Of a stretch of DNA of 64,000 nucleotides, positions 4,262-31,613 are shown piece by piece. Every line of letters starts with the position of its first letter. The first letter of the stretch is position 1. Position numbers and translations under genes: made by a program. The stretch covers positions 22,473 through 86,472 of the forward strand of contig JAHITV010000035.1 of NCBI GenBank assembly GCA_018817315.1, in the 5' to 3' direction. Below the pieces are notes generated by a model, which was not told the DNA's origin, made no database searches, and saw only the letters and a program-made list of their open reading frames with translations. Source of the DNA: Patescibacteria group bacterium. GTDB taxonomy: Bacteria; Patescibacteriota; Patescibacteriia; UBA1558; UBA10009.

Positions 4262-5638
4262 ATGAACTTAATAAAACAAAAAAAGATAATCACTTTAGTT
4301 CTTATAGCGGTCCTAATAATGACTTCTGGTTTATCTTGTAAACTTTTGCCTACCAAAAAACCTCCTTTAAGTTTAACCAAACCTATTGAATTATCTTACT
4401 GGGGAGTGTGGGATAGCAGCGATGATTGGCAACCCCTAATTGATGATTTTAATATCATGCACCCTAACATTAAAATCATTTATAAAAAATTCAGGTATGC
4501 TGAATATGAACAAAAACTATTAGAAGCCTGGGCAGAAGACAGGGGGCCGGATATCTACAGTATTCCTGCTACTTGGCTAAAAAAGTATCAAGAAAGAATA
4601 ACTCCTATGCCCGCCAGTGTTAAATTATCTTTTCGGGAGGTTAAAAAAGTTTTGGGCAAAACCGAAATATCTGATGTCGTAAGACAACTGCCCACTTTTT
4701 CTTTAAATGACATTAAAAATAAATTTGTAGATGTAATTAATGATGATATTATTATGGATGGCCAGATTTATGGCCTACCTTTTAGTGTAGACACCTTAGT
4801 CCTTTATTATAACCGTGATATTTTGGATAGCAATGGCATAGCGGTCCCTCCTGGTAATTGGACTGAGCTTGCTGAAACTGTAAAAAAAATAACCAAAGTG
4901 GATAAAAATAATAACATTATCCAGTCAGCTATAGCTTTAGGCACAGCCAATAATGTCCCTCAAGCCTTTGATATTGTTTCTTTACTAATGATGCAAAACG
5001 GAACACAAATGATAAGCAGTACTGGTCAAGTTAATTTTCATTTATCTCCTACTAAAGAAAGAGATAATCTGCCCGGTCTGCAGGCTTTGCTCTTTTATAC
5101 TGATTTTGCCAACCCTATCAAGGAAGTATATTCTTGGAATGCAGAACAACTAAATGCTTTTGAAGCTTTTATTTCTGGAAAGTTAGCTATGCTTTATGGT
5201 TATTCCTATTATCTGCCCTTAATTAAAACTCAAGCGCCAAAACTGGATGTTGGCATTGCTCCTATGACCCAAATTCAAGGCGCTACCAACCCACTTAATT
5301 ACACTGATTACTGGGTAGAAACTGTTTCCCATAAAACTAAAAGTATTGATGCTAGTTGGGGCTTTTTAACTTTTGCTGCCAGTCAAAATGAAACAGAAAA
5401 ATACTTAGAAAAAACAAAAAAGCCAGCCGCTTTAAGAAATTTAATTACTAAACAAAGAGAAGATCCGGAAATCAGTGTCTTTGCCAACCAAACTTTATCA
5501 GCTACTCACTGGTATAAAGGTAAGGATATTCTAAAAGCAGAAGAAATATTTAAAGAGCTTATTGAGACTTTGCCCAACAGCGCTGAACCTACAAAATTAC
5601 TGGAATTAACTGCTAAAAAAATTAACTTAACTTTATAA
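4262..5638 (+). CDS. extracellular solute-binding protein (ABC transporter family 1 SBP-like)
   Basis: N-terminal signal anchor. YEQKLLEAWAEDRGPDIYS motif and overall length are typical of SBP_bac_1 sugar-binding proteins. Confidence 0.5.
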   Translation: MNLIKQKKIITLVLIAVLIMTSGLSCKLLPTKKPPLSLTKPIELSYWGVWDSSDDWQPLIDDFNIMHPNIKIIYKKFRYAEYEQKLLEAWAEDRGPDIYSIPATWLKKYQERITPMPASVKLSFREVKKVLGKTEISDVVRQLPTFSLNDIKNKFVDVINDDIIMDGQIYGLPFSVDTLVLYYNRDILDSNGIAVPPGNWTELAETVKKITKVDKNNNIIQSAIALGTANNVPQAFDIVSLLMMQNGTQMISSTGQVNFHLSPTKERDNLPGLQALLFYTDFANPIKEVYSWNAEQLNAFEAFISGKLAMLYGYSYYLPLIKTQAPKLDVGIAPMTQIQGATNPLNYTDYWVETVSHKTKSIDASWGFLTFAASQNETEKYLEKTKKPAALRNLITKQREDPEISVFANQTLSATHWYKGKDILKAEEIFKELIETLPNSAEPTKLLELTAKKINLTL

Positions 5639-6309
5639 TGAAACCTAAACCTTCCAGTCTTTTAATTTATTTTCTTATTCTAATTGGCTTGTTGTTTTTA
5701 CCACTGCTGGTTAAAGCGCAAATTTTACCTGCCTGCAGTACTACGGGTAATTGCGGAATCTGTGATTTTTTAGACACTTTTGTTAATATTATCCGTTGGG
5801 TATTGGGTGTGGTAGGAGGCCTGGCTTTATTACTGATGGTCTGGCACGCTTTTGGCTGGCTAACATCAGCAGGTAATGAAGAAAAAATAAAAACTTCGCG
5901 GCAAGGTATAGTACATACTATTTTAGGTGTGGTTATTATTTTAGTGGCCTGGCAGTTAGTTAATATTATTATTGTGCTGTTAGTAAGTCCGCAAGGTGGA
6001 AATGAAATTAAACTTTTTGGAAATAATGGCAAAATCTGGTACAGATACTGTAGTGAAGTAAATGAATGTATTGGCCGGGCAGATGGCAGTCCTTGTGGAG
6101 ATGGTTATTATTGTGAAAATCAAAGCTGTAATAACACCGGAGAAAGTGCTTGTAATTATTGGGCAACCTATAAGGATCCTGCTAAAATGGGCGGTACTAA
6201 TCCTTATGCTGAATACAGATGTTTAACTAAAGATCAATGTGATCCTTATGAAAATTTAGGTCCGGCTTACTGCCCAGGAACAGAAGAAAGCTGTTGTAAA
6301 CCCAAATAA
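5638..6309 (+). CDS. VirB2/TrbC-like pilin family protein, paralog 1, with Cys-rich N- and C-terminal extensions
   Basis: Signal peptide, then conserved two-helix core (ALLLMVWHAFGWLTSAGNEEKIKTSRQGIVHTILGVVIILVAW) shared with 8 downstream paralogs. C-terminal 90 aa contains about 16 Cys. ATG overlaps the upstream stop (TAATG). Confidence 0.55.
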   Translation: MKPKPSSLLIYFLILIGLLFLPLLVKAQILPACSTTGNCGICDFLDTFVNIIRWVLGVVGGLALLLMVWHAFGWLTSAGNEEKIKTSRQGIVHTILGVVIILVAWQLVNIIIVLLVSPQGGNEIKLFGNNGKIWYRYCSEVNECIGRADGSPCGDGYYCENQSCNNTGESACNYWATYKDPAKMGGTNPYAEYRCLTKDQCDPYENLGPAYCPGTEESCCKPK

Positions 6310-6343: not shown

Positions 6344-6727
6344 ATGAATTTATTTAAAAAAACAGTTGCTCTTATTATTTTTATTTTACTGTTTAATTTA
6401 TTAATCGGATATAATGCTAATTTGGTTTATGCGCAAAACACTAATGAATCTGGTACATATTTAGAAAATCCTTTGGGTTCAGAAAGTTTAACTGCCATTG
6501 ATATTTATGCCCGCCTTATTTATGCTTTTATGGGTTTTACTGGAATTTTAGCGTTAATTATGTTTATTCTTGGCGGTTTTCAGTGGATGACAGCCGGGGG
6601 TAATGCTGAAAAAATCAAAAAGGGCAGAGACACTTTAATTTGGGCTGTTTTGGGTCTAGTTATTATTTTTGCTAGTTACGCTATTCTTAGAGCTGTGTTT
6701 CAAACTTTACAATTTGGCGCAGGATAA
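6344..6727 (+). CDS. VirB2/TrbC-like pilin family protein, paralog 2
   Basis: Signal peptide plus core GGFQWMTAGGNAEKIKKGRDTLIWAVLGLVIIFASYAI. Confidence 0.6.
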   Translation: MNLFKKTVALIIFILLFNLLIGYNANLVYAQNTNESGTYLENPLGSESLTAIDIYARLIYAFMGFTGILALIMFILGGFQWMTAGGNAEKIKKGRDTLIWAVLGLVIIFASYAILRAVFQTLQFGAG

Positions 6728-6888
6728 ACTTATACCTAAAACTAGCTAAAAACAATCAATTATTGTATAATTATATTGATAAATTGGTTTCAAAGTTATC
6801 CACATTATTAATTAATAAATAAAATAATACACTGGAATTTTTATTCTTAAGTGAATATAATTTCCAAACGTGGAAGGGGGTGAAGACA

Positions 6889-7257
6889 ATGAAAAAATTT
6901 TTAACAAAGAAAAATTTAATTGCTCTGGCCGGAGGCCTGTTATGGGCAATCCCTCTAATGGTGGGAGCTCAAGCATCTTTAGGTATAGAGATTGGAGGTT
7001 CTACTGGTTTAGGTAGTCGTGATCTTAAAGAAACCATTGCTTCTGTTTTAAATGTACTTCTTGGTTTCTTGGGTATAATTGCAGTAATTGTTATCCTTCT
7101 AGGTGGTTTTAAATGGATGACAGCCGGGGGTAATGAAGATAAAGTAGCAGAAGCTAAAAAACTTTTAGGCGCGGGTATTATTGGCTTAATAATTATTCTA
7201 GCTGCCTATGCTATTGCTACTTATGTCATTAGTACCATTTCAACCGCCACTCAATAA
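6889..7257 (+). CDS. VirB2/TrbC-like pilin family protein, paralog 3
   Basis: Core GGFKWMTAGGNEDKVAEAKK. ATG at 6889 is preferred over the GTG at 6880 because a GAAGGGGG Shine-Dalgarno sits 6-10 nt upstream. Confidence 0.6.
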   Translation: MKKFLTKKNLIALAGGLLWAIPLMVGAQASLGIEIGGSTGLGSRDLKETIASVLNVLLGFLGIIAVIVILLGGFKWMTAGGNEDKVAEAKKLLGAGIIGLIIILAAYAIATYVISTISTATQ

Positions 7258-7399
7258 TCCCTGCTCCATAATAGTCAGCATTAATAACAAATTTTGTTAA
7301 ATTTACAATTTATACTATATCCCGTCCCGCCATTGGTATGGCGGGATAAGGCATAAATTGTAAGGATTATAAATTATTTATAATTTGAATCTTAAATTA

Positions 7400-7840
7400 A
7401 TGAGCTTTTTATTTAAAAAAAATAAATTATGGCAGTTGGGCTTTGTTGCCCTGTTTTTATTTTTAACCGCTTCTTTTTTATTGCCTTGTTCTCTTTTTGC
7501 TCAAGAAGCTCCGCCTCCTGCCAGTGCGGCCTTAGAAGGATTAGATTTAACTGCCCAAAAAGCTCAAATTAATACGGAAATTACTGCCACGCAAATGGTC
7601 GGTTATATTATAAACTTAATTCTAGGATTTTTAGGCGTTATCTTTTTGGTTTTGGTTATTTATGGCGGTTTTCAGTGGATGACAGCCGGCGGTAATGAGG
7701 AAAAAGTAAAAAAAGGACGTGACATGATTGTTCAAGCAGCTATTGGTCTGGCTATTATTCTCTTTGCTTTTGTTTTAACCAACTTTGTCATCTTCAGATT
7801 ACTTGGCATTGCTGTAGGAAATGGTTCTTCCCCTTATTAA
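7400..7840 (+). CDS. VirB2/TrbC-like pilin family protein, paralog 4
   Basis: Core GGFQWMTAGGNEEKVKKGRD. The ORF track begins at TTG 7385; the first ATG is at 7400. Confidence 0.55.
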   Translation: MSFLFKKNKLWQLGFVALFLFLTASFLLPCSLFAQEAPPPASAALEGLDLTAQKAQINTEITATQMVGYIINLILGFLGVIFLVLVIYGGFQWMTAGGNEEKVKKGRDMIVQAAIGLAIILFAFVLTNFVIFRLLGIAVGNGSSPY

Positions 7841-7849
7841 TTAAGAAAT

Positions 7850-8419
7850 ATGAAAATCAAAATCTTATTTGTAATAATTTTCTTTCTACTAGGATATTTC
7901 TTGTTCCCTAATTTATCTTTTGCTCAAAATATTGATGTTAGTGATACTTGCCCGCCTGGAATGTCTTTGCAGGACTGTATTAGAATGGGTTTAGGCCAAG
8001 TGGGTGATACCAGTGGTTATGGTCCGGCCGGACCCATAGAAGCCACTGCTATTTCCGAAAAAGTTGGTAATATTATTTCTTATGTTCTGGCTTTTTTAGG
8101 CGTTATCTTCTTGGTTATCACTGTTGCTTCTGGTATCCAATGGATGACAGCCGGCGGTAATGAGGAAGTGGTTAAAAAAGCGCGGACTAGACTGGTTAAT
8201 GCTACTGTGGGCTTAATTATTGTAGTAGCTGCCTATGCTATAACCTGGTTTGTAGTTACCAAACTTAGACAAAGTATTGATATAGGTGCTGGTTCTGGGT
8301 CTACCTCTTTGAGTTGTAGTGATCCCATTGACTGTGAAGGTACTAGTTGGGCTAATGAATGTTACAGTAGTGGTGGATCGGTTAATTGTATAGATAACTT
8401 TTGTGCATGTACTTATTAA
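7850..8419 (+). CDS. VirB2/TrbC-like pilin family protein, paralog 5, with Cys-rich C-terminal tail
   Basis: Core SGIQWMTAGGNEEVVKKARTRL. Tail CSDPIDCEGTSWANECYSSGGSVNCIDNFCACTY. Confidence 0.6.
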   Translation: MKIKILFVIIFFLLGYFLFPNLSFAQNIDVSDTCPPGMSLQDCIRMGLGQVGDTSGYGPAGPIEATAISEKVGNIISYVLAFLGVIFLVITVASGIQWMTAGGNEEVVKKARTRLVNATVGLIIVVAAYAITWFVVTKLRQSIDIGAGSGSTSLSCSDPIDCEGTSWANECYSSGGSVNCIDNFCACTY

Positions 8420-8441: not shown

Positions 8442-8807
8442 ATGAAAAAAATCTTCACAATCATTTTAATATTATTCTTTCTGTTTTTAAGCACTTCTTT
8501 TGTTTTAGCAGCTGATCCTTTGGAAGATAATCTTAAGGCAATCGGCCAAGGCGCTGATTATTCTACCAATGTTGGCGAGGAAACCATTCCTTCTTTTATT
8601 GGCCAAATGGTAGCTATTATCTTGGGTTTTATCGGCTCAATCTTTTTCATTATTGTTGTTTATTCTGGTATTCAGTGGATGACAGCCGGAGGTAATGAAG
8701 AAGTGGTTAAAAAATCACGTACCAGGTTAATTAATAGTATTATTGGACTGGCTATTACAACTGCTGCTTATTTTATTACCCAGCTAATCAGTAGAGCTTT
8801 TATCTAG
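8442..8807 (+). CDS. VirB2/TrbC-like pilin family protein, paralog 6
   Basis: Core SGIQWMTAGGNEEVVKKSRTRL. Shares a 20+ bp identical DNA stretch with paralog 5. Confidence 0.6.
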   Translation: MKKIFTIILILFFLFLSTSFVLAADPLEDNLKAIGQGADYSTNVGEETIPSFIGQMVAIILGFIGSIFFIIVVYSGIQWMTAGGNEEVVKKSRTRLINSIIGLAITTAAYFITQLISRAFI

Positions 8808-8830: not shown

Positions 8831-9418
8831 ATGAACAAACTTTCAACTAAGATAGGGCTATTGTTTCTGTCTGTATTAATACTTTTTTGTATTTTACCGA
8901 TAAATACACTGGCCCTAGATATTGATAAATATTCTGATATTATAGCTGAAAGAGGAGGTTATCAAACTGGCGGCGATGTTGAAACTTTTTTTGACACCTT
9001 TATAGGAAGAGTTATTGCTTATGTATTAGGATTTGTCGGCATAATCTTTTTGATTTTGATTATTATTTCCGGCTTTCAGTGGATGACAGCCGGAGGAAAT
9101 GAAGAAAAAGTCGGTATAGCCCGCAAACGGATAGTTAGCGCAGTAATTGGTTTATTTATTATCCTTGCCGCCTATCTTATAACTTATTTTGTCTACACTA
9201 CTATTAAAACTGCCAGCGAAGGGGGAACGCCAGCAAATTTACAAGAGGGCTTTGAATGTCAATATAATACTGATTGCACTGATCCTAGCGAACCTTACTG
9301 TCAGCATTTCCCTACCTGGAGTTTTTGCGCAAGATGTACAGAAGACAGCCATTGCGGACCAGGAGAACAATGTTGTACATCTTTAACTAGTAACTGGTGC
9401 GCTGGCTCTTGTAATTGA
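8831..9418 (+). CDS. VirB2/TrbC-like pilin family protein, paralog 7, with Cys-rich C-terminal tail
   Basis: Core SGFQWMTAGGNEEKVGIARKR. Tail CQYNTDCTDPSEPYCQHF...CARCTEDSHCGPGEQCCTSLTSNWCAGSCN. Confidence 0.6.
   Translation: MNKLSTKIGLLFLSVLILFCILPINTLALDIDKYSDIIAERGGYQTGGDVETFFDTFIGRVIAYVLGFVGIIFLILIIISGFQWMTAGGNEEKVGIARKRIVSAVIGLFIILAAYLITYFVYTTIKTASEGGTPANLQEGFECQYNTDCTDPSEPYCQHFPTWSFCARCTEDSHCGPGEQCCTSLTSNWCAGSCN
9024..9090 (+). repeat. 67-bp segment identical to 9628..9694 (inside paralog 7 core region)
   Basis: Direct read: tattaggatttgtcggcataatctttttgattttgattattatttccggctttcagtggatgacagc is identical in both genes. Confidence 0.85.
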
Positions 9419-9428
9419 TAATAATAAT

Positions 9429-10022
9429 ATGAAACCTGCCAAAAAAATTTGTATAATCATAATTTTTATTTCATTATTGACAATTATTTTTTCCTATCAA
9501 ATAAATAACGCTCTAGCCTTTACTCAAAGTGAAAAATATAAAGGTTATCTTGATATTGCCAGAGAACAAAGCGGCTATAATACAATAAATGATGTTAGTC
9601 AGCTACCTGCTAGAATTATTGTCTTGATATTAGGATTTGTCGGCATAATCTTTTTGATTTTGATTATTATTTCCGGCTTTCAGTGGATGACAGCAAGCGG
9701 CAATGAGGAAAAAATTAGCAGTGCCCGTAAACGAATAATTAATGCTTCTATTGGTCTGGGTATTACTTTATGCGCCTTTATTATCTCTTATGGTATTTTT
9801 AAACTGTTTTATGAACAAACCTTACAAGTACCAAGCGGAGGTATAGAACCGCCGCCAGGGGCAGGAGAAATAATTCCTTGCAGTTCTGATATACAATGTG
9901 AAGATAGATCGCCAAGAATTTATTGTCTTAGTGGAAACTGTGTTGAATGCATAGAAGACGCTCACTGTACTCTTGATAAATATTGTCATCCCAGTTGGCA
10001 TGCCTGCCTGCCTTCTCCTTAA
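9429..10022 (+). CDS. VirB2/TrbC-like pilin family protein, paralog 8, with Cys-rich C-terminal tail
   Basis: Core SGFQWMTASGNEEKISSARKR. Tail CSSDIQCEDRSPRIYCLSGNCVECIEDAHCTLDKYCHPSWHAC. Confidence 0.6.
   Translation: MKPAKKICIIIIFISLLTIIFSYQINNALAFTQSEKYKGYLDIAREQSGYNTINDVSQLPARIIVLILGFVGIIFLILIIISGFQWMTASGNEEKISSARKRIINASIGLGITLCAFIISYGIFKLFYEQTLQVPSGGIEPPPGAGEIIPCSSDIQCEDRSPRIYCLSGNCVECIEDAHCTLDKYCHPSWHACLPSP
9628..9694 (+). repeat. 67-bp segment identical to 9024..9090 (inside paralog 8 core region)
   Basis: Same 67-mer as above. Confidence 0.85.
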
Positions 10023-10042
10023 AGATTATTTATTATACCTAT

Positions 10043-10450
10043 ATGAAAATTATAAATAAAATTAAAATCAAATTAATTCTTTTACTGGCGAGTTTAACTT
10101 TTTTGCCGGCTGAAATTTCTAAAGCCCAAAATCCTCTTGAGCGTTTAAAAAGTACTGCTTCTCAATCCGGCTATGCCACTCAACAGGTTACCCCGGCAGA
10201 AACTGTAGCTACTATTATTATTTATGTGCTGGGATTTATTGGTTTAATTTTTCTGGCAGTTACAATTTTTTCCGGCTTTCAGTGGATGACAGCCGGAGGC
10301 AATGAGGAAAAAATCAGTGAAGCTAAAAAACGTTTGCAGTATGCAGTTATTGGCTTACTAGTAATCTTAGCGGCTTATACTATAACCATCTTTGTTTCTC
10401 GTGCTCTAATTCATTCAACTACCCAATATTATTACGGTCCTTATCCATGA
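10043..10450 (+). CDS. VirB2/TrbC-like pilin family protein, paralog 9
   Basis: Core SGFQWMTAGGNEEKISEAKKR. Start at internal ATG (MKIINKIKIK) rather than the overlapping upstream ATG at 9983. Confidence 0.55.
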   Translation: MKIINKIKIKLILLLASLTFLPAEISKAQNPLERLKSTASQSGYATQQVTPAETVATIIIYVLGFIGLIFLAVTIFSGFQWMTAGGNEEKISEAKKRLQYAVIGLLVILAAYTITIFVSRALIHSTTQYYYGPYP

Positions 10451-10525: not shown

Positions 10526-12490
10526 ATGCCAATCTTTCTAAAAAAACATTCTAAAAAAATCCTGTGGCTGGGGATCTTTCTTTATTTTTCTATTTTTTGT
10601 GGAATCTGTATCTGGAAATATTCCCAGTTTGGCTATAATGGCTTGGATTTAGCGATTTTTAATCAGGTTTATTCCAACTCAACTGTTGGGCAACTTTTTC
10701 AATTTACTATTCATCCCCAATCTTATTTAGGCGATCACCTGGCTTTGATTATTATTCCCCTGCTACCGCTTTATTATTTTTTCCGACATCCTCTTTGTTT
10801 ATTAATCATGCAAACCTTGATTATTGCTCTTACTGCTTGGCCTATTTATAAAATCTCTCAAAAATTGTTTGCTGGCTTATGGCCTTTGTTTTTTAGTTTG
10901 GCCTGGCTATTTAATCCTTTTACGCAAAATATTAATATTTTTGAGTTCCATCATCTGCCTTTTGCTGTTTTTTTGATTTTTTGGGCTTTTTATTTTTACC
11001 AAAATAAACGTTTTACTTATTTTATTCTGTTTACTGTACTTAGTTTAATGGTCCGTGAAGATGTTGCTTTGGTAATGGTAATGTTTCCGATTCTGGCTCT
11101 TTTAGAAAAAAGAGGGATTAAATGGATTATCTGGCCTGGTTTAATTTCTCTTGGTTGGTTTTTTGTAGCTATAAAAATAATCTCTTATTTTTCTCCGGAA
11201 AGTCAATATAAATTTCTTTATTACTATTCCTGGCTTGGTCAAAGCTGGACAGAAATAATCATCAATACTTTCGCTCATCCTTTATTAGTGCTTAAACACC
11301 TTGCCACTTGGCATAATTTGATGTTCACCTTGGGGTTAATGCTACCCTTTGCTTATCTTTTAAAAATCAGATATTTATTATTAGGATTTCTGATTTATTT
11401 ACAGCTTATTTTTGGCGGTTCTAGTAATTCCACTATTATTCTTAGTCTTCATTATTCAGCTTTGCTTTTACCAGCGCTTTTTATTGCTTTTATTTATTTT
11501 ATAAAAAATATTACGAAATTATCTCCGCAAAATAAATTAAAGCTTTTTTTAGGCAGAGAAAAATTATTAACTGTCAGTATTATAACTATAGCAATTATTT
11601 ATTCCTGCTTGACCCTTGGTCCCTTACCTGCAGTAATAAAAAATCTGGTTAAACCAACCAAAACAATAGAAATTACTAATGCTAAAAAGGAATTCCTACA
11701 AACTGTATCAGTTAAAAACAGTGTTGTTACTACTTATGAATTTTTAGCACCGCTTTCTAATCGTTCTGATATTTACTCACTTCATTATGCTTTTATTGGC
11801 AAACAACAATTCTCTGATGTTAATTATACTTTGCCTGAAAATTTAGATGTAATGCTTATTGACTTTGATGATTTTCTTACTTATGAATTGCAATTCCCTA
11901 ATATTAAAGCTTGGCAACAATATTATCAAGATGGCGATAATAATATAAGAAAATTAATAAAGGAACGAGACTTTAAAGTAACTAAAGTTTTTGATTCTTT
12001 AGTCCTAATGGAAAAAGATAAGGACTTGGATATAATTTTATATGAAAGAGGAAATAATTTTAATAATATTCAACACCCCAAAAAAATAAATCTTGATAAC
12101 AAGATAAATTTTCTAGGCTGGAATGATAATCAATCAATCTCTGATCAAAATTTAAAATCTTTCAGTTTTTATTGGCAAGCTACTAAAAAACTGGAAGAAA
12201 ATTACCAGCTTAAATTAATTTTAAAAGATGAAAATGATCAGATTATTTATGAAAAAATTTATGCCTTAGCTTATGGTCTTTGCCCTACTACTGAATGGCA
12301 AACCAATGAAGTAATTAAAACAAATTATTGGTTTTATACCCCTCAAAAAATAGCTAATCTTAGCTATAAAATAGAACTTGAATTAGTTGAGTTAAAGGGC
12401 TTTTTAAAACTTGATGGCTTACGTTCTGTTATACCAATAATTACTAAAGAAAATAAATTAACTCCCCATATCAAATTACTTGATAAATAA
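10526..12490 (+). CDS. DUF2079-like polytopic membrane protein
   Basis: More than 12 predicted TM helices. N-terminal YSQFGYNGLDLAIFNQVYSNS motif resembles DUF2079 proteins, with a large C-terminal extracytoplasmic domain. Confidence 0.45.
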   Translation: MPIFLKKHSKKILWLGIFLYFSIFCGICIWKYSQFGYNGLDLAIFNQVYSNSTVGQLFQFTIHPQSYLGDHLALIIIPLLPLYYFFRHPLCLLIMQTLIIALTAWPIYKISQKLFAGLWPLFFSLAWLFNPFTQNINIFEFHHLPFAVFLIFWAFYFYQNKRFTYFILFTVLSLMVREDVALVMVMFPILALLEKRGIKWIIWPGLISLGWFFVAIKIISYFSPESQYKFLYYYSWLGQSWTEIIINTFAHPLLVLKHLATWHNLMFTLGLMLPFAYLLKIRYLLLGFLIYLQLIFGGSSNSTIILSLHYSALLLPALFIAFIYFIKNITKLSPQNKLKLFLGREKLLTVSIITIAIIYSCLTLGPLPAVIKNLVKPTKTIEITNAKKEFLQTVSVKNSVVTTYEFLAPLSNRSDIYSLHYAFIGKQQFSDVNYTLPENLDVMLIDFDDFLTYELQFPNIKAWQQYYQDGDNNIRKLIKERDFKVTKVFDSLVLMEKDKDLDIILYERGNNFNNIQHPKKINLDNKINFLGWNDNQSISDQNLKSFSFYWQATKKLEENYQLKLILKDENDQIIYEKIYALAYGLCPTTEWQTNEVIKTNYWFYTPQKIANLSYKIELELVELKGFLKLDGLRSVIPIITKENKLTPHIKLLDK

Positions 12491-14120
12491 CCACCTCATT
12501 ATTCTGATAAACAGGTTTAAGATAATTTTTTTCTTGCGGATTAAAACTTTCTAAAAATCTTTCTTGCGAACCGTAAAATATATAGTTAATACCCTCATAT
12601 TTTAACCACTCATATTTTTCTTTATCCCCTTTATTGGTTTTAAAAAACCATAATTTGACTTTGAATAATTTGAACATCCAATCGCCTGTCTGATGACCGT
12701 GACCGATATACACTTTATTGGCAGTAACAGCTGGAATTATATTACCGGTTTTTGCACTGCTTAAAATTACCTTATCCTTACTGATGTTATTTTTAAGCCA
12801 AAGCATGGCTTGATATTCTTCTTGTTTGAGATAATAAAGCGGAGGCCTGGTGCTTAAAATCACAATATCTTGACCGACATTATAAAAAGTGGAAGAAATT
12901 AATAAAAACCCCAAACTCATTACTAAAAAAGCGCGAACAGAATAATATTTAAGCATTTCCTGCCAGAAAAATCTTTTATTCAGATAATTAATGACTAAAT
13001 ATAATCCTAAAACTGCAATTATAACCATTGGCAAATGCAGTCCGTTTGATAATCTTCTTTGAAACTGCAAAGGCACAAATAATAAAAACCAACCAACAAT
13101 TGACCAAATGCCCAAGAAACGCCAATAATTATTTTGGCTCTTTACTGCTTTATAAATACCGAATAAATAGAAGATAAAAATCAAACCATAGCCAACAGCA
13201 TAATTAAAAAATCTAGGAGATAAAGTTATATTTTGTACTGCCCAGACTGCAAAAGAGGAATCAGTGAATTTTAACCATAAAAAATATAAAATAGCCAAGC
13301 TGGAAACCACGAATATAACTGCCAGTTTAGAAAACTGTTTCCATGAGATCTTTTTTTGTTTTAGACAATTAACTAAAAACCAGCAACCAACCACAGTATA
13401 AATAATTATCAGATCATAAGGATGAAAAATACCTAAGAATAAAGTTATAAAACTGATAAATATAACAGATAACCAATTAGTTTTGTTTAATCGTTCAATT
13501 AACCACCAAAAAATAAATAAAATGAAAATTTGTGAAAGAATAAATAAAGGTGAATGATATAAAGTTAAAAAAGTATTACCTTCCGAAACCCACATATCTG
13601 TACCAAAAGTATTATACATATTTTCTGCGCTCCAAGGTTTATTAAGAGTAAATACTCCTAAACCTGATCCCAAACAAATAGCAAAAAAACAAACTTTTTT
13701 CCATTTGATTTTATTAAAAAATCTACTAATAAACAGATAAATAAAATATAAAAAAACAGCACCTAGTAAAATTCTGGCAAAATGGAAAATAAATACTTTT
13801 GATAAACCGGTTATTGCCGTCAGCCAACCCAAAACCAGCCAAACCGGCGAAAAAATCTTTGCTACAGCTGCTTCGGAAGTATAAAGATTATGGAATAAAA
13901 GATGGCCTTGCATGGCTTCTTCTATTTGCGAAAAATAAACCATTTTATCTGCTCCGGCAATAACAGTAAAGCCAGTGTAATGTAAATTTGGAGGAGTAGA
14001 AAGCCAGCCATAAATGACTGGTATCACCGAAATTAATAAGGTAAGAAAAATCAGGAAAAAAACAAAATTCTTTTCTTTACCACTGATTGATTTGTGAACT
14101 TCTTTAATAAAAGAAAACAT
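12471..14120 (-). CDS. polytopic membrane protein, putative GT-C fold glycosyltransferase (PMT/ArnT-like)
   Basis: 549 aa with about 12 TM helices, a first-loop acidic motif and a C-terminal soluble domain. Architecture resembles GT39/GT83 enzymes; no motif-level certainty. Confidence 0.4.
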   Translation of the reverse strand: MFSFIKEVHKSISGKEKNFVFFLIFLTLLISVIPVIYGWLSTPPNLHYTGFTVIAGADKMVYFSQIEEAMQGHLLFHNLYTSEAAVAKIFSPVWLVLGWLTAITGLSKVFIFHFARILLGAVFLYFIYLFISRFFNKIKWKKVCFFAICLGSGLGVFTLNKPWSAENMYNTFGTDMWVSEGNTFLTLYHSPLFILSQIFILFIFWWLIERLNKTNWLSVIFISFITLFLGIFHPYDLIIIYTVVGCWFLVNCLKQKKISWKQFSKLAVIFVVSSLAILYFLWLKFTDSSFAVWAVQNITLSPRFFNYAVGYGLIFIFYLFGIYKAVKSQNNYWRFLGIWSIVGWFLLFVPLQFQRRLSNGLHLPMVIIAVLGLYLVINYLNKRFFWQEMLKYYSVRAFLVMSLGFLLISSTFYNVGQDIVILSTRPPLYYLKQEEYQAMLWLKNNISKDKVILSSAKTGNIIPAVTANKVYIGHGHQTGDWMFKLFKVKLWFFKTNKGDKEKYEWLKYEGINYIFYGSQERFLESFNPQEKNYLKPVYQNNEVVIYQVI

Positions 14121-14189
14121 CTCTTATATTTTAATAAAGATTTTAAAATAAACAATGGAAAATTATTAAAGTTATTGCTGGCCTCTTTT

Positions 14190-15758
14190 TTATTTCCATA
14201 AATTAGTTTGCCAATAATAAATTTTGCTTTCTGAATCTTCATATAGCAAAGTAAAGTTAGGGTTTAGTTTTAAAGTATTATCTAGGGTCTGATGTTTTTT
14301 ATCCAAAAAAACATAATCAGCTTTAAACTGTTCTTGAATAATTTTACCTAAATCTATCTGTCTACTGCCTAATGTTATATTAACATACTGCCAATATTTC
14401 TCCTTATTATATTCATACATAAAAGTGGGGTCAAGACCAGTAAGATAATAATTATGATCATTGTAATAAAAAAGGGCGGGAAAATCATCCCAATCAGCAT
14501 GAAATATTACTGAATGAAGCGGCGTATTCTCTCTTAACCAACTACTGGCTTTTTGGTAATGGTTTAAGGGAAATCCTTGCTCCATATCCTTTTTAACTGT
14601 TCTTAAATCATAAGGGATATTAATAATAAGGCCTAGTAAGATTACTGAAAACAATAAGCTAAAGGTCCATTTCCAGGTTCTACTTAAACCTAACCAGAGT
14701 TTTTGCGCTATTCTACTTTTAATGAAATCACTTAAACTAAAAGCAAAGAAAATAACAGTAAAAGGCACATACACCTCAACATAACGGCGGGATTTTAAGG
14801 TTAAAAGAAAAAAAGCTATGCCAAGTACGCCCCATAACCAGGAATAAACTGACTGTTTTTTTAAAGTTAAAATAAAAACGAAAATACCAACTAATAATAA
14901 AGAACAAATCAAAGGAGCGTCAGTTATTAGTTTTAAGAAACCATAAGGATACCATTCACCGCCCACTCCTATAACACGGTGATAATTTATCACAGCAATT
15001 TTTACAAATTGTTGCCAATAAAAAAACAAATTAGCAGGAAAATAAGGATTAATAACAATACCCGCTAAAATACCGCCGCCCAAACATGCTAATTCTGAAG
15101 CAGGAGACAATAATTTTTGATTAGTCTGATGTTTTCTACGAATAATCTTAACTATTTTAACTAAAATAGCATACAATACGCCCATTACTACTATTAAAGG
15201 CCAACCAGCATAAAGCCAAACGGAAGCAAAAGCAATAATAAATAACAGGATTTTCTTTTGATGGGTTAAACAATAAAAAGCTAAAATCATCAGAATTAAA
15301 AAAACTACTGGTACTTTGACTAAACTGATTCTAAAAAGCCAAGGTTGCGCTGCTAATAAAAAACAGATGAAAATAAAAGGCCATTTAATATGATACTGTT
15401 TAAATAACCAATAAATAATTAAAACTAAAAGAGTAGCAAAAATTACAGTAGCAGCTTTTACCCCGACTAGAGGGTTAAAAAAACTCACGACTGGTATTAA
15501 GAGTAAGTGATAAAGAAAATGATGGTCAACAAAAACATCTTTGAGGTTTGTTTCCTGGAGCCAAGGCAGTTGTTTAAGAATTTTTCCTGAACTTAATAAT
15601 TCTGATACTTTAGCATGATAAAAAGAATCTGGTTCAGGCAAGGTCTGGCTTGACTGTAGCCAAAAAAATAAGGTTAAAGCTAAAAGAACCACTAAAAAAT
15701 AGTCAAAAAGATACTTATAATTTATTCTTTCTAGCCATAATTTTAATTCATTAAACAT
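14190..15758 (-). CDS. polytopic membrane protein, putative GT-C fold glycosyltransferase (PMT/ArnT-like)
   Basis: 522 aa and multi-TM. Loop-1 PDSFYHAK resembles the DE/DxxY(H) motif of GT-C mannosyltransferases. C-terminal periplasmic domain. Confidence 0.4.
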   Translation of the reverse strand: MFNELKLWLERINYKYLFDYFLVVLLALTLFFWLQSSQTLPEPDSFYHAKVSELLSSGKILKQLPWLQETNLKDVFVDHHFLYHLLLIPVVSFFNPLVGVKAATVIFATLLVLIIYWLFKQYHIKWPFIFICFLLAAQPWLFRISLVKVPVVFLILMILAFYCLTHQKKILLFIIAFASVWLYAGWPLIVVMGVLYAILVKIVKIIRRKHQTNQKLLSPASELACLGGGILAGIVINPYFPANLFFYWQQFVKIAVINYHRVIGVGGEWYPYGFLKLITDAPLICSLLLVGIFVFILTLKKQSVYSWLWGVLGIAFFLLTLKSRRYVEVYVPFTVIFFAFSLSDFIKSRIAQKLWLGLSRTWKWTFSLLFSVILLGLIINIPYDLRTVKKDMEQGFPLNHYQKASSWLRENTPLHSVIFHADWDDFPALFYYNDHNYYLTGLDPTFMYEYNKEKYWQYVNITLGSRQIDLGKIIQEQFKADYVFLDKKHQTLDNTLKLNPNFTLLYEDSESKIYYWQTNLWK

Positions 15759-15815
15759 ATCACTTTAAACAAAGAAAAAATCCGAGAAAAACGGGCTTTT
15801 AATCTGCAAATATAA

Positions 15816-16838
15816 TCAACTCTTTAACTTGTTTTTTAAATAATCAACCCAAGGAATTTTGTTAGGATCAACTTTATTTATCTTAGCCAATTGATAAGAA
15901 AGTAAACTGCCAAAAACCAACATTTCCATAGCCTGGCTTGTTTTATCACCCTTAAATTCAAGGTTATTGTAAGTTATTTTTTTTCGGTAAAGAATTTTTT
16001 GGGTTATTAAATAACGTTTCTGATTTCTTAAATTATAACTTTTGGAAAAAAAGAAAAGAAAATGTAAAGTTTTCCTGTTACTTTTAGGAAAAGTTAATCC
16101 TTCCAAAAGATGATGGTTTAATTCCGGAATAGCGTAATAACAAGCTAGTTGTTTGGCTGATTCATTAATTTGGTTGGAAATAATATGAGCATTGCCTTGC
16201 AAAAATTCTGATGAGACAATAACAGGAATTTTGTTTACCAGCTTTTGGCTATACTTTTTTATTTGATCAAAATTCTGATATTTAATAAAGGCTTTATTAG
16301 TATATTTGATCATTTTAACTGCTTGATCTTGTGTTAATTTAATGAATTTTAATTTTTCAAGAATTGCTATTACTGAACCAATTAAATAACCAATACCTAT
16401 TCTGGGCTGTCCTGAGGGATTATTAATTGGCTCAAATATATAAAAGGGGATTTGTTTATTTTCAGCAATTTTTGCCAATTTACCATTACTGGTGATAATC
16501 ACCGCTTTTATTTTAAATTTAGTTATTAATTTACTTATAGTTATTACTTCTTCGGTATTACCAGAATAACTTATTAAAAAAACCAAAGTTTTTTTATCAA
16601 CAAATTTAGGCAAATAATAACCCCTTACTTGGGTGATGGGTAATTTTATTTTTTGGCTGAATAAATGACGGACCAAGTCAACTCCCAATTGCGAACCGCC
16701 CACGCCACAAGTTACGATCTTATTAACTTGTTTATAATCATCAGGTAATCTGATTTTTTTAGCTTCAGTATAAGACTGTTCTATTTGACTTCCTAATAAT
16801 TTAATGGATTGTAAATATACAGATTTGGTTTGTCTCAT
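15816..16838 (-). CDS. bifunctional phosphoglucose/phosphomannose isomerase (SIS domain)
   Basis: CGVGGSQLGVDLV SIS-domain phosphosugar-binding motif. About 340 aa, typical of archaeal-type PGI/PMI. Confidence 0.6.
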   Translation of the reverse strand: MRQTKSVYLQSIKLLGSQIEQSYTEAKKIRLPDDYKQVNKIVTCGVGGSQLGVDLVRHLFSQKIKLPITQVRGYYLPKFVDKKTLVFLISYSGNTEEVITISKLITKFKIKAVIITSNGKLAKIAENKQIPFYIFEPINNPSGQPRIGIGYLIGSVIAILEKLKFIKLTQDQAVKMIKYTNKAFIKYQNFDQIKKYSQKLVNKIPVIVSSEFLQGNAHIISNQINESAKQLACYYAIPELNHHLLEGLTFPKSNRKTLHFLFFFSKSYNLRNQKRYLITQKILYRKKITYNNLEFKGDKTSQAMEMLVFGSLLSYQLAKINKVDPNKIPWVDYLKNKLKS

Positions 16839-18240: not shown

Positions 18241-18942
18241 ATGAAAGTGATAGGTTTATCTTCGGATATTTTATATAAAACAGTTCCTCCTACCTCAAAA
18301 AAAATCTTTAAAATATTTCGTAAAATTAACTGCCGCGCCGTTGAAATACATTGTCCTGCCAGCGAATTATCCTCTTTAGAAAGAATTGATCCTGCTGATT
18401 TACAAGGATTTACGCATGTTTCTCTTCATTTACCAAGTAGAGGGATAATTTATGACAATAATTCTAAAACCAAAAGAATTCTTGAACTAATACAAAGAAC
18501 TAAGGAAAAATTAAATTTTAAATGGGTGATAGTTCATCCTCATAAAGTAAAGAATTGGAATATCTTTAAGAATTGTTCATTCACAGTTGCCGTGGAAAAT
18601 ATGGATTATAAAAGAAATTTTGGTAAAAACGTTGAAGATTTAAAAAAAATTTTTAAAAATACTTTTCTAAAATTTATTTTAGATATTAATCATTGTTTTA
18701 CTAACGATAGATCATTAAAGCTAGTGGATGATTTATATAAAAATTTTAAAGATAAATTATGCGAAATCCATGTCAGTGGTTTTATCAAAAACCATGAGCC
18801 ACTACACCTAACCAAACAAAAGAAAATCCTGCAAGCGATTCCTGATTGTACTTGTCCTATTATTATTGAAAGTGTCTGTCTTAACGAAGATCAACTTAAG
18901 AAAGAATTTACCTATATTAATAATTTTTTCCATGCCTCATAA
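18241..18942 (+). CDS. hypothetical protein, possible sugar phosphate isomerase/epimerase (xylose isomerase-like TIM barrel)
   Basis: Spaced VIVHP...AVENMD...LDINHCF...EIHVSG motifs resemble the metal-ligand pattern of AP-endonuclease-2/xylose-isomerase-like TIM barrels. Confidence 0.3.
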   Translation: MKVIGLSSDILYKTVPPTSKKIFKIFRKINCRAVEIHCPASELSSLERIDPADLQGFTHVSLHLPSRGIIYDNNSKTKRILELIQRTKEKLNFKWVIVHPHKVKNWNIFKNCSFTVAVENMDYKRNFGKNVEDLKKIFKNTFLKFILDINHCFTNDRSLKLVDDLYKNFKDKLCEIHVSGFIKNHEPLHLTKQKKILQAIPDCTCPIIIESVCLNEDQLKKEFTYINNFFHAS

Positions 18943-20392
18943 ATTAAAAATTGTTTCTATTGCTTCGGAAGTATACCCTTTTAGTAAAAGCGGTGGTTTA
19001 GCTGATGTCGTGTGTAGCTTGTCTAAAATCCTAAAACAATTAGGCCATGATATAATAGTTATTACCCCTTTTTACGGAGAAATCATTGACCGAAAAAAAT
19101 ATAATCTAAAACCGGTTTTTGAAAATGTCTCTTTGGAAATGGACAAGGAAACAAAAATTAAAGTAAATTATTTACAGGGGTATTTAGATAATGACCTGCC
19201 TATTTATTTTGTGGCAAACGAAAAATTCTTTTCCCGTAAAAAAGAATTATATGGCAGTACTAAAGAAAATAAAAGATTTTACCTTTTTGACGTTGCCGCT
19301 TTAAAACTAATTGATTTGCTTAAATTTAGGGCTAATATTATTCATTGTCATGACTGGCACGCTGGTTTGGTTCCTGAATTATTGCATAAAAATTTTAACA
19401 ATAATAAATATCCTTCTTTAAAAAACAGTAAAACAGTCTTCACTATTCATAATTTAGCTTTTCAATTGGGTTATGATTGGTGGCAGGTGCCTTTAACAGA
19501 GAAAGATTATGGCCGCAAAGCTTTACCTAAATTTTACGATCCTAAAATGGAGTATATTAATTTTGCTAAACGAGCCATTACCCATGCTGATATTATTAAT
19601 ACTGTTTCTGAACAATATGCCGAGGAAATTTTAACCAAAGACTTTGGGCAAGATTTACAGCGAATACTTAACAGTAATAAAAAAAAGCTTTTTGGTATCA
19701 TTAACGGCATTGATGAAAAAGAATATAATCCAGCTACTGATCCAGGATTAGCAAAAAATTACAGCGTTGACAGTCTTTATTTTAAAAAACAAAATAAAGA
19801 AGCTCTGCAAAAACTTTTTAATCTGCCTGTTAAAGACGTTCCGGTTATAGGTATGACCTCGCGTTTAGTTGAACAAAAGGGCTTTAATTTATTAGATAAA
19901 ATTTTAGAAACTTTGTTGTCATTTGATTTGCATTTTATAATTATGGGTGACGGGGATAAAAAATATGTAAGTATAATCAATAAGATGGAAAAAAAATATC
20001 CTAAAAAATTGGCTTATTCTAAGTTTGAACAAAAAATAGAAACTAGTATTTATGCTGGTGGTGACATGCTTTTAATGCCTTCCCGTTTTGAACCTTGTGG
20101 TTTAAACCAGCTTTATGCTCTACGTTATGGCTGTATTCCTATTGTCCATAAAATCGGTGGTTTAGCAGACACGATTACAGAATTTAATCCCAAAACCAAT
20201 AAAGGCAATGGTTTTACTTTTAAACATTATCATGAATATAAATTACTTATGGCTATAACCAGAGCAATGGTAACATATCAACATAAAGATGTCTGGAAAG
20301 GTTTAGTAGAAAAAGCTATGAGAATGTCATCTTTTTGGACATTTTCTGCTAAAAAATATGTTGTTTTATATAAAAAAGTTCTAAAAATTTAA
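18932..20392 (+). CDS. glgA: glycogen (starch) synthase, GT5 family
   Basis: KIVSIASEVYPFSKSGGLADVV N-terminal KxGGL motif. C-terminal GT1-like domain (GGLADTI). Start set at the internal ATG MPHKLKIV. Confidence 0.85.
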   Translation: MPHKLKIVSIASEVYPFSKSGGLADVVCSLSKILKQLGHDIIVITPFYGEIIDRKKYNLKPVFENVSLEMDKETKIKVNYLQGYLDNDLPIYFVANEKFFSRKKELYGSTKENKRFYLFDVAALKLIDLLKFRANIIHCHDWHAGLVPELLHKNFNNNKYPSLKNSKTVFTIHNLAFQLGYDWWQVPLTEKDYGRKALPKFYDPKMEYINFAKRAITHADIINTVSEQYAEEILTKDFGQDLQRILNSNKKKLFGIINGIDEKEYNPATDPGLAKNYSVDSLYFKKQNKEALQKLFNLPVKDVPVIGMTSRLVEQKGFNLLDKILETLLSFDLHFIIMGDGDKKYVSIINKMEKKYPKKLAYSKFEQKIETSIYAGGDMLLMPSRFEPCGLNQLYALRYGCIPIVHKIGGLADTITEFNPKTNKGNGFTFKHYHEYKLLMAITRAMVTYQHKDVWKGLVEKAMRMSSFWTFSAKKYVVLYKKVLKI

Positions 20393-20419
20393 TCTTTTTA
20401 TTAAAAAACAAATAATTTT

Positions 20420-21901
20420 ATGTACTGGGCAAACCTTCTACATATTTACCAACCCCCCAATCAAATACCAGATATTCTGGAAAGGATTGTTAATGAAAGC
20501 TATAGAGCATTGATACATGGTCTTAAAACAAATCCCAAAGCTAAATTGACTTTAAATCTTAATGCTTGTTTAACTGAACTTCTAGCTAGAAAAGGATATC
20601 TTGATGTTATTAAAACATTAAAATTTTTAGCCAAGCGCGGTCAGCTTGAATTTACTGAAACTGCTAAATACCATCCTTTTCTACCAAAGCTACCTGAAAA
20701 AGAAATTGTTAGACAAATAAAATTAAATTATTCAACCAATAAAAAATATTTTGGAGCAACTTATCAACCTCAAGGGTTTTTTTCTCCGGAAATGGCTTAC
20801 AGTAAAAAATTGGCAAAAATTGTCAATGGTTTAGGATATAAATGGCTAATTATTGATGAAATTGCTTATAATGGCAAGAAGGCCAGTATTGATTTTTCTC
20901 AAATATATAAACTAAAAAATAGTAAAAATTTTTACGTTTTTTTCAAAAATGAACGTTACAGTAATCTGATTGCTGGAGCTATAACCCGTTCAGTGCCTTC
21001 TTTTATAAAAGAGCTGGGAAAGGATTATAGTAAAGATAAATATATTATTACAGCTATGGATGGCGAAACTTTCGGACATCACCGCCCTGGTTTAGATGAA
21101 TTTCTTTTTAATCTTTATGCCTCCAAAAAATTCACTTCTATCTTTGTCTCTGAAATACCTAATTATTTTTCTAATCAGGAAATTGTTGATCCCCTGCCTT
21201 CTACCTGGTCTTGTAATACAGAAGATTTAAAAAATAATTTACCCTACAAGCTCTGGTATCAGCCAGATAATCCTATTCATCAGTTACAATGGCAATTTCT
21301 TTATTGGAGCTTGAAAACAGTAGAAAGTCTTAAACCAAAAAATTCTCATCACTATAAAAAAGCTCGGAAGCTTTTAGATGCAGCTTTAAACTCCTGTCAT
21401 TTTTGGTGGGCTTCAAAATACTGGTGGAGTTTGGAAATAATTGAACAAGGGGCTTATGATTTTTATCAAGTGAGTGTAGCTACTAACTCAGCAAAGTTGA
21501 TAAAAAAAGCTAAAGATTATTATCAAAAAATCTTAAGCTTAGCTTTTCAGTGGCAACGTGACGGCACTATTAGAAAATTTCATAAAGATAAGGAATTCTG
21601 GCAAAAAACACCTTTTAAAAACAGAACACCCAAAGAATGGTTTAATCAGATCATCTTAGAATTTGAGGATGAAATGAAAAAAGCAGCTAGCGCGCAAGAA
21701 TATGAAAAAGCTATTAAATGGCGGGATGCTGTTATTAAACTAAAAAGTGGGGTTGATGTTTATGATGTTTTGCATATTGTTAATGAATTAAACACTGTTC
21801 GTAAAATTCCTTCATTAAAACCTTTTCTACAACATAAAAAATTTTCCAAGTTTACCTTAAAATATTTCCAGCCACATCCATATTTAAAAAATAAAAAATG
21901 A
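20420..21901 (+). CDS. glycoside hydrolase family 57 protein with C-terminal UVR domain
   Basis: GH57 motifs are present: H-x-Y-QP near the N-terminus, RGQLEF (GQxE), and TAMDGETFGHH (DGE nucleophile region). The C-terminal EFEDEMKKAASAQEYEKAIKWRDAVIKLK matches the UvrB/UvrC UVR-domain consensus. Confidence 0.7.
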   Translation: MYWANLLHIYQPPNQIPDILERIVNESYRALIHGLKTNPKAKLTLNLNACLTELLARKGYLDVIKTLKFLAKRGQLEFTETAKYHPFLPKLPEKEIVRQIKLNYSTNKKYFGATYQPQGFFSPEMAYSKKLAKIVNGLGYKWLIIDEIAYNGKKASIDFSQIYKLKNSKNFYVFFKNERYSNLIAGAITRSVPSFIKELGKDYSKDKYIITAMDGETFGHHRPGLDEFLFNLYASKKFTSIFVSEIPNYFSNQEIVDPLPSTWSCNTEDLKNNLPYKLWYQPDNPIHQLQWQFLYWSLKTVESLKPKNSHHYKKARKLLDAALNSCHFWWASKYWWSLEIIEQGAYDFYQVSVATNSAKLIKKAKDYYQKILSLAFQWQRDGTIRKFHKDKEFWQKTPFKNRTPKEWFNQIILEFEDEMKKAASAQEYEKAIKWRDAVIKLKSGVDVYDVLHIVNELNTVRKIPSLKPFLQHKKFSKFTLKYFQPHPYLKNKK

Positions 21902-23737: not shown

Positions 23738-23749
23738 TTAATTATTTTA

Positions 23750-25213: not shown

Positions 25214-25246
25214 ATATTTAATTTATTTTTAGATAACCAATAATTT

Positions 25247-26194: not shown

Positions 26195-26200
26195 TAGAAT

Positions 26201-31356: not shown

Positions 31357-31613
31357 ATATATATTTATTTATTAGTTATTAATAATAAAGGAAGTGTAAA
31401 TGTTGAAAAGATTATTTTTTCTTTGTTGTTTAGCCAAATTTTTAATTCTATTAGGTGTGAAAAACCTGCTAATCATTTTTTAATAAACAGGGTAAAAGTA
31501 ACAATAATAGTTTAAAAGGTAAAATGTTTGTGGATATTTATTTGTTTAATCAACAGTTAATACAGTTGTTTTTCTAAAACTTATTTCAAACCTTTACCCA
31601 ACTTATTAAAAGT

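Follow-up and report, generated by a model that had tools for sequence, protein, structure and literature searches.

In group IV Pseudomonas aeruginosa, the gene of TfpW stands directly beside the pilin gene whose product the enzyme modifies. TfpW is a polytopic membrane glycosyltransferase of the GT-C class that has its loop 1 in the periplasm and a large domain at its C terminus, and it draws on sugars that are made in the cytoplasm and linked to a lipid carrier (bioRxiv 10.1101/2020.04.19.049825). Archaeal AglB glycosylates pilins, archaellins and S-layer proteins (PMC5131992). Here we analyze a stretch of 64,000 nucleotides from a Patescibacteria group bacterium (contig JAHITV010000035.1 of assembly GCA_018817315.1, positions 22,473 to 86,472 of the forward strand; hereafter the window), in which an array of nine pilin genes adjoins the genes of three large membrane proteins that we call M1, M2 and M3. 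Many Patescibacteria of the Parcubacteria group share a conserved gene block, of which this region represents the minimal form. We propose, with a probability of roughly one half, that it encodes an extracytoplasmic glycosylation module which draws on polyprenyl-phosphate sugars and whose acceptors are most likely surface proteins of the pilin type.

The comparison with described systems is instructive on both sides. TfpW, a polytopic GT-C-type enzyme as M3 is, and one whose gene layout recurs in the M3b paralogues of M3 (below), has the type IV pilins of a diderm as its substrate and polymerizes D-arabinofuranose. In contrast, M3 of the window lies beside VirB2-like pilins, has a fold nearest to the oligosaccharyltransferase (OST) subunits STT3 and AglB, and is accompanied by additional GT-C genes (M2 and the DUF2079 gene M1). 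The OSTs of family GT66 (STT3, AglB, PglB) transfer an oligosaccharide en bloc, whereas the genomic context here points to single sugars linked to a monophosphate carrier. Three-component systems (GtrABC, ArnC/ArnT, CsbB/GtcA/YfhO and the Pgf system of Streptococcus mutans), which combine a GT2 polyprenyl-phosphate sugar synthase, a GtrA-type flippase and a GT-C transferase, separate cytoplasmic activation from transfer outside, a division also found in relatives that combine M3 with a cassette containing GT2 genes; however, GtrA-like genes are rare in these loci, the window contains neither GT2 nor GtrA, and the GT-C components come from unclassified families. Finally, the GT-C sets of mycobacteria and corynebacteria (AftA-D, EmbA-C, MptA/B and PimE, with Ppm1) build arabinogalactan and lipoarabinomannan, polymers that to our knowledge are not known in Patescibacteria, whereas this locus is tied to pilin arrays.

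The lifestyle of Patescibacteria is one of attachment to host cells, and few surface systems besides pili and VirB2-like arrays have been connected with it. Arrays of 2-11 divergent VirB2-like genes, often near dnaA, have already been described in these bacteria, one of them reported as essential for epibiotic growth, and type IV secretion system (T4SS) genes are likewise found near dnaA (PMC12102498); the nine-gene array of the window fits this range. In a term search of that paper, the only word beginning with 'glycos-' was glycosidases, and no link to glycosyltransferases was seen. Literature searches on DUF2079, on OST and GT-C enzymes in the candidate phyla radiation (CPR) and on pilin glycosylation in Patescibacteria returned no prior description, nor did we find in them any mention of VirB2-like arrays flanked by DUF2079, GT-C and phosphoglucose isomerase (PGI) genes on one side and by solute-binding protein (SBP) and GalU genes on the other. 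VirB2-like arrays in Patescibacteria, GT-C enzymes and three-component glycosylation are therefore already known; what appears to be new is the existence of two unannotated GT-C families of the STT3/AglB branch, the fixed pairing of M2/M3 and DUF2079 with pilin arrays across many CPR lineages, and a sister M3 subfamily beside type IV pilin genes.

GT-C genes and pilin arrays share a conserved block

M1, a polytopic DUF2079 protein of 654 aa (10526-12490, plus strand), starts 75 bp past the last pilin gene, in the direction of the array, and is probably co-transcribed with it. The genes for M2 (549 aa; 12471-14120), M3 (522 aa; 14190-15758) and PGI (340 aa; 15816-16838) form a minus-strand unit that converges with M1 and overlaps it by 20 bp at its 3' end. 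These four open reading frames (ORFs) were recovered exactly as delimited in a first-pass annotation of this DNA. Its placement of three membrane-protein genes immediately next to the array also holds, but only M1 is co-directional with the pilin genes, M2, M3 and PGI being convergent on the minus strand. A scan of the locus for promoters and terminators stayed at chance level and was uninformative on operons.

We mapped the neighbourhood of M3 in the best 80 species-level loci of at least 587 species genomes (M3 identity 33-56%), with neighbour genes called using hidden Markov models built from the window and the first relatives. One gene order recurs in genomes labelled Komeilibacteria, Kerfeldbacteria, Buchananbacteria, Falkowbacteria, Kuenenbacteria and Veblenbacteria: RuvC and YebC are read in one direction; PGI, M3, a variable cassette and one to three copies of M2 diverge from them; and DUF2079, the pilin array, SBP and GalU, listed from the M2 side outward, lie on the opposite strand and converge on M2. 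M3 is immediately preceded by PGI in 48 of 70 loci. On the other side, a pilin gene comes next after DUF2079 in 24 of the 25 loci where that side is visible, a single M2-like gene standing between them in the twenty-fifth. Of 51 loci with full flanks, 34 have pilin genes downstream of M3 at a distance of no more than 10 kb, and in most of the other 17 the cassette runs off the flank. The first-pass annotation had made conservation of the pilin and GT-C neighbourhood a test of its proposal, with a lack of synteny as grounds for dropping it, and these counts show the neighbourhood to be strongly conserved.

The relatives' arrays comprise 1-11 genes visible within the fetched flank. SBP comes after the array in more than 20 related loci, and GalU lies beyond both, for instance in L011, L039, L040, L045, L049, L053, L071, L077, L085 and L086. 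Both genes are present upstream of the array in the window too, as had been annotated: GalU, a UTP-glucose-1-phosphate uridylyltransferase (3384-4250, plus strand; TIGR01099, E 1.8e-101, 339 bits against a cutoff of 326.8), and a family-1 SBP with an N-terminal signal or lipoprotein-like leader (4262-5638, plus strand; SBP_bac_1, E 1.9e-24; SBP_bac_8, E 1.6e-23). Many third-party metagenome-assembled genomes (MAGs) with the locus (L009, L036, L038, L039, L045 and others) are titled 'uncultured Gammaproteobacteria bacterium', which is probably a labelling error.

The cassette is the part of the block that changes. It holds 2-8 GT-C genes in the relatives (MptA/B-type, PMT_2-type, DUF6311 and M2 copies), 1-4 small GT2 genes, methyltransferases and unannotated membrane proteins of 430-570 aa, and the next recognized gene after M3 is a GT2 or an MptA/B-type GT-C in 51 of 73 loci. 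The window, with M3, M2 and DUF2079 and no cassette, is the minimal version. In several Kerfeldbacteria-like loci (L006, 11614-12258; L007, 11619-12263; and others) a 214-aa UbiE-type methyltransferase, which could methylate a sugar or the carrier, is encoded directly after M3. The flanks beyond RuvC vary by species, with a glycogen cluster in some and TyrRS/PBP genes in others, and the M3-to-pilin block persists through heavy turnover of the cassette. In five loci devoid of both M2 and DUF2079 (L032, L059, L064, L085 and L086), M3 itself abuts the pilin array. M3 is a tandem duplicate in three of them, at about 8.5-11.5 kb in L032 and L064 and at 1.0-4.1 kb in L059, and both copies abut an array of mixed orientation.

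A sister subfamily of M3 lies beside type IV pilin genes

One MAG carries a second copy of M3 (P0099) which, together with its four closest relatives (P0098 and P0100-P0102), makes up a group that we call M3b, 45-50% identical to M3. Each of the five loci was looked up, and in all five the gene immediately preceding M3b encodes a type IV major pilin with the leader KGFTLIELLVVIAIIGLL (L088, 4131-5798; L091, 1249-2826; L093, 2179-3762; L094, 504-2117; L095, 531-2144). Where the contigs are long enough, PilB, PilC, minor pilins and a prepilin peptidase are encoded in the same clusters. A PMT_2-type GT-C gene follows M3b in four of the five loci; in L091, M3b is flanked by pilin genes and has no other glycosyltransferase gene in its vicinity. 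When a metagenome scan was started from the M3b paralogue, it returned only itself and one fragment. This arrangement of a pilA gene followed by a transferase gene is the one described for TfpW. Since a duplicated M3 gene has come to lie next to a type IV pilin gene, the family is linked to pilins a second, independent time, and we regard its presence beside a structurally unrelated class of filament subunit as the strongest argument that the M3 family acts on pilins.

Predicted fold and conserved residues of the membrane proteins

Homologues of M2 and M3 were gathered and aligned, and structures were predicted with AlphaFold (AF2; pLDDT 96.1 for M2 and 94.5 for M3). Neither protein has a Pfam match, or an NCBIfam or PDB sequence match of any weight. 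Searches of PDB sequences with the single proteins and with family profiles were empty, except for a weak match of M2 to the C-terminal domain of AglB-S2, and a Pfam scan of all 61 M3 family members gave scattered noise matches only. In Foldseek searches with the M3 model, the first 15 places are all taken by OST catalytic subunits (yeast and human STT3, AglB and PglB; E 1e-9 to 1e-7, TM 0.60-0.68), against E values of 8e-6 for ArnT and 4e-3 or worse for PMT. The fold matches of the M2 model are AftA (20.1), STT3B (19.2) and AglB (18.1). The M2 and M3 profiles align with each other (hhalign 97.5%), and an AglB-type C-terminal globular domain is present in both by fold comparison. That of M2 also aligns with the AglB-S2 domain (hhalign 91%, E 1e-6), albeit on a thin AglB-S2 profile, for which the seeded homology search gave a single 131-aa protein; M3, unlike M2, has no meaningful alignment to this thin profile. 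On these models, M2 and M3 are GT-C-fold membrane glycosyltransferases with an extracytoplasmic C-terminal domain, and profiles and models together place them as distant paralogues in an STT3/AglB-related branch of the fold.

The first-pass annotation had described both as PMT/ArnT-like, with periplasmic C-terminal domains, and had named unrelated transporter families as the finding that would overturn it. The GT-C class and the outer domain stand, and the family label does not: STT3, AglB and AftA are nearer in fold, and PMT and ArnT were rejected as the closest families. Neither M2 nor M3 has the PMT Pfam match or the MIR domains in a large luminal loop that define PMT (GT39), and neither matches the PMT_2/ArnT sequence model of GT83. 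A transporter identity was also rejected, the fold being unambiguously GT-C; one distant M2 match, P0068, bears a TRAP permease label in its source. M3 matches the archaeal STT3 model TIGR04154 weakly (E 4e-5, 22 bits against a cutoff of 450), and by sequence criteria neither protein would be counted as a GT66 member.

M1 matches PF09852 (DUF2079) far above the gathering cutoff, as annotated (E 3.4e-53, 181.8 bits against 28.2; residues 34-487 on profile positions 4-452 of 459), and ends in a non-membrane domain of about 170 aa, which we place outside the cytoplasm. Its profile aligns with the M2 family (hhalign 80%, E 1.4e-5) and, remotely, with the M3 family (60%, E 9e-5, 290 columns). This weak similarity suggests that M1 is a GT-C-like membrane glycosyltransferase. 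DUF2079 belongs to the GT-C clan of Pfam.

Each of the three proteins has an acidic residue in its first outer loop that is a candidate for the GT-C catalytic residue. In M3 it is D44, part of a [DE]PDSFYH motif just past transmembrane helix 1 and invariant in 61 sequences; in M2 it is D58, an invariant residue just past the first transmembrane helix; and in M1 it is D41, invariant in five orthologues together with R177-E178-D179. M3, which shares its first-loop acidic motif with the OSTs and is much shorter than them, also has a conserved E268 in a later outer loop, an invariant R325, and a motif H-[SA]-D-W-D-[DE]-F-P in which W423 is invariant and D424 nearly so. In chained alignments this D-W-D loop falls within 1-2 residues of the WWDYG motif of OSTs, of which it is a possible functional analogue, although the motif is a different one. 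M2 has S-A-K at this place and no WWD-like motif.

The M2 family is small, with 70 matches. That of M3 counts 3486 clusters at 50% identity with E <= 1e-3, of which 1489 have E <= 1e-30, and at least 587 species genomes carry both M3 signature peptides. Among the listed M3 family members none has a Pfam domain, and almost all are found in Patescibacteria. Proteins identical to M2 and M3 are on record as hypothetical (KKF32_03705 and KKF32_03710).

The array encodes VirB2-like pilins

The nine pilin ORFs, all on the plus strand, lie at 5638-6309, 6344-6727, 6880-7257, 7385-7840, 7850-8419, 8442-8807, 8831-9418, 9429-10022 and 9983-10450, the last of them probably starting at an internal ATG near 10043. 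Membership of PF18895 (T4SS_pilin) and the VirB2 type was judged by a gathering score together with two hydrophobic helices separated by a short charged loop. All four ORFs that were scanned pass the PF18895 threshold (35-43 bits against 26.6, E 1e-8 to 3e-11), and a WMTAGGNEEK-type loop is found in all nine; because of these two features we classify the array, from its sequences, as VirB2/TrbC-like pilins. A type IV pilin identity was rejected for the same reasons. Four of the nine (5638-6309, 7850-8419, 8831-9418 and 9429-10022) carry Cys-rich C-terminal extensions of 60-110 residues that look like small disulfide-bonded domains displayed on the pilin, and in the C-terminal outer segments of the relatives' pilins 10.9% of the residues are cysteines.

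Sugar donors and the neighbouring isomerase

The GT2 proteins of the relatives' cassettes have polyprenyl- or dolichyl-phosphate sugar synthases as best matches (AglJ, dolichyl-phosphate hexose transferase, ArnC, PgfS and PpgS), all below curated cutoffs. GtrA-like genes are rare, occurring in three of about 90 loci, and the loci contain no initiating phosphoglycosyltransferase and no Wzx/PglK-type flippase. One locus (L014, 9980-17807) reads M3-GtrA-GT2-GT4 and, further on, PMT_2, with no PGI, YebC or pilin genes in view; it looks like a stand-alone, three-component arrangement of the Gtr type.

The gene upstream of M3 had been read as a bifunctional phosphoglucose/phosphomannose isomerase able to supply mannose-6-phosphate for O-linked mannosylation. 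Its product has the SIS and bact-PGI_C domains (the latter with E 5e-27) of the archaeal-type PGI/PMI family and matches the NCBIfam models for PGI/PMI (E 4e-57), but its best scores (193.7, 191 and 182 bits) fall below every curated cutoff (471, 295 and 213.9). The architecture is thus right and the bifunctional activity unsupported. The gene lies 57 bp upstream of M3 and in the same direction, a gap that shrinks to 4-15 bp in relatives. Just across the divergent YebC-RuvC pair there is a glycogen/alpha-glucan-type cluster (18866-27031, plus strand; two GT5 starch-synthase-like proteins, a GH57 protein, an APH-like kinase, a PHP protein, a GalT-like protein and a ROK kinase), and the same genes lie by RuvC in several relatives. 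Because such a cluster adjoins it, PGI may be the cell's ordinary glycolytic enzyme, and the cluster may explain its location here.

Mannose fares no better. The window has no ManB, ManC or Dpm1-type gene and no polyprenyl-phosphate sugar synthase; nothing in it points to mannose, and a supply of mannose-6-phosphate by PGI was rejected as an evidenced step. The MptA/B-family matches hint at mannose in the relatives and are silent on this genome. As to the linkage, the available evidence does not separate O from N, which leaves the annotated O-linkage unsupported.

Discussion

In the mechanism that we favor, polyprenyl phosphate would be charged with a sugar in the cytoplasm, the loaded carrier would flip to the outer side of the membrane, and a GT-C enzyme would transfer the sugar there. 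The donors would be polyprenyl-phosphate monosaccharides made by small GT2 synthases, which are encoded in the cassettes of relatives and would be encoded elsewhere in this genome. We assign to M3 the role of an acceptor-directed, initiating transferase that would put the first sugar on the acceptor, because it is the invariant, single-copy, OST-like member of the set and has D-W-D in the loop that corresponds to WWDYG. M2 would extend or vary the glycan, since its copy number varies, it resembles AftA and it lacks the motif; DUF2079 may do likewise. The acceptors would be the nine VirB2-like pilins, at the outer segments of their N and C termini, and possibly SBP or other exported proteins. 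Pilins are the most likely candidates because of the tight adjacency between the array and DUF2079, and because every M3b locus has the transferase gene immediately behind that of a type IV major pilin. PGI and GalU, as conserved flanks, could feed hexose phosphates and UDP-glucose into the pathway. Pilin glycosylation as put forward in the first-pass annotation therefore keeps its GT-C enzymes and its conserved synteny, gains the M3b link, loses mannose, and rests on an acceptor that we infer.

Several observations weigh against this proposal. Three loci (L025, L027 and L036) have the order PGI-M3-GT2-M2 and no recognizable pilin gene within about 8 kb. The unrelated YebC and RuvC genes are kept in the same conserved block, with dnaA and dnaN nearby, so synteny alone proves no shared function; vertical inheritance of gene order could explain the adjacency to pilins, and it is common for variable glycan loci to have unrelated conserved genes on either side. 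Cassettes of up to eight GT-C genes resemble the assembly of a polymer more than the decoration of a protein. The window contains neither a GT2 synthase nor a GtrA-like flippase, from which we infer that donor synthesis is encoded in another part of the genome. A true WWDYG motif is missing from M3, and PF02516 (STT3) is matched neither by M3 nor by any of the 61 family members. Finally, N-x-S/T is not enriched in the outer segments of the VirB2-like pilins (z -0.9 and -0.5 against shuffled controls): N-x-S/T and D/E-x-N-x-S/T were counted in 132 and 55 segments, and neither exceeded the controls. For O-linkage this last result is neutral, and it speaks mildly against N-linkage of the classical kind.

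The most serious alternative, which we consider possible but doubtful, is that the block builds or decorates stepwise a glycopolymer or lipoglycan of the cell envelope, similar to lipomannan, to an arabinan or to a teichoic acid, and that pilins, SBP, GalU and PGI are mere neighbours. The combination in the cassettes of 2-8 GT-C genes with GT2 and methyltransferase genes resembles the mycobacterial assembly of lipomannan and lipoarabinomannan or of arabinogalactan, and the DUF2079 protein weakly matches a 'cell surface glycopolymer formation protein' family (E 2.8e-4). The retention of unrelated genes in the block and the unenriched sequons also speak for it. However, M3b is found among type IV pilin genes in all of its five loci, and its position in L091, with no partner glycosyltransferase, is hard to square with an enzyme of wall-polymer synthesis. 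M3 also stays by the pilin array in the five loci where M2 and DUF2079 have been lost, and its closest folds are OSTs, which modify proteins.

It is improbable, in our estimation, that the enzymes perform a general O-glycosylation of many exported proteins among which pilins are not special, or that they have no functional link to the array and persist beside it through phylogenetic inertia near the replication origin. About 15-20 kb indeed separate the locus from dnaA/dnaN, gene order is conserved in this region, T4SS genes are known to lie near dnaA in Patescibacteria (PMC12102498), and the adjacency of YebC-RuvC to PGI is conserved as well. But the flanks beyond RuvC differ between species, yet the M3-to-pilin block survives the turnover of the cassette, and the duplicated M3b copy sits beside a different kind of pilin gene. 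Least likely of all, and by a wide measure improbable, is that M3 is a true but very divergent N-oligosaccharyltransferase which, as AglB does, moves a preassembled glycan from polyprenyl diphosphate to asparagines of surface proteins: AglB, STT3 and PglB are its best structural matches, TIGR04154 is weakly matched, and [DE]PD, E268 and R325 are conserved and D-W-D lies in the loop that aligns with WWDYG to within one or two residues, but WWDYG and the Pfam STT3 match are missing from 61 members, PDB profile searches came back empty, the loci lack a phosphoglycosyltransferase and the appropriate flippase while their GT2s are of the monophosphate type (once with a GtrA), and the pilins are not enriched in N-x-S/T.

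A more specific version of the glycosylation module can be offered tentatively, since we hold it to be less probable than the module itself: the M3 family would be a bacterial offshoot of the STT3/AglB lineage that has turned into a dedicated pilin glycosyltransferase, with one subfamily serving VirB2-like arrays and its sister type IV pilins, D-W-D as a peptide-binding motif in place of WWDYG, and polyprenyl-monophosphate donors. If M3 is such a transferase, it would define a glycosylation system for VirB2-type pilins, the first of its kind, and would contribute in a major way to how the surfaces of episymbiotic CPR bacteria vary. More generally, if the filaments are glycosylated by a conserved module with a strain-variable glycosyltransferase cassette, host recognition, resistance to phages and surface diversity would depend in large part on that module, throughout a very large share of bacterial diversity that is mostly uncultured. 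The proposal offers a testable function for two large unannotated families (M2 and M3) and for DUF2079, and points to a branch of the OST fold in bacteria besides the PglB enzymes of the Campylobacter type.

Other features of the window

The nearest named relatives of this genome are Komeilibacteria, within the Parcubacteria group. The window also contains dnaN, dnaA and yidC (30247-32975, minus strand, and 33942-34667, plus strand), and the cumulative GC skew is flat to minimal at about 30-36 kb and rises afterwards. Because dnaN/dnaA are 13-16 kb away and the skew is flat or minimal there, the module is probably about 15 kb from the replication origin. Further along, a 2548-aa protein with SpvB, TcdB middle/N, FG-GAP and RHS-repeat domains is encoded on the plus strand at 56053-63699, a giant resembling Tc/Rhs-type toxins in a reduced CPR genome. 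A membrane H+-pyrophosphatase (45952-47946, plus strand; E 9e-270) is encoded where the GC content of the window is highest (0.388; about 0.32 elsewhere).

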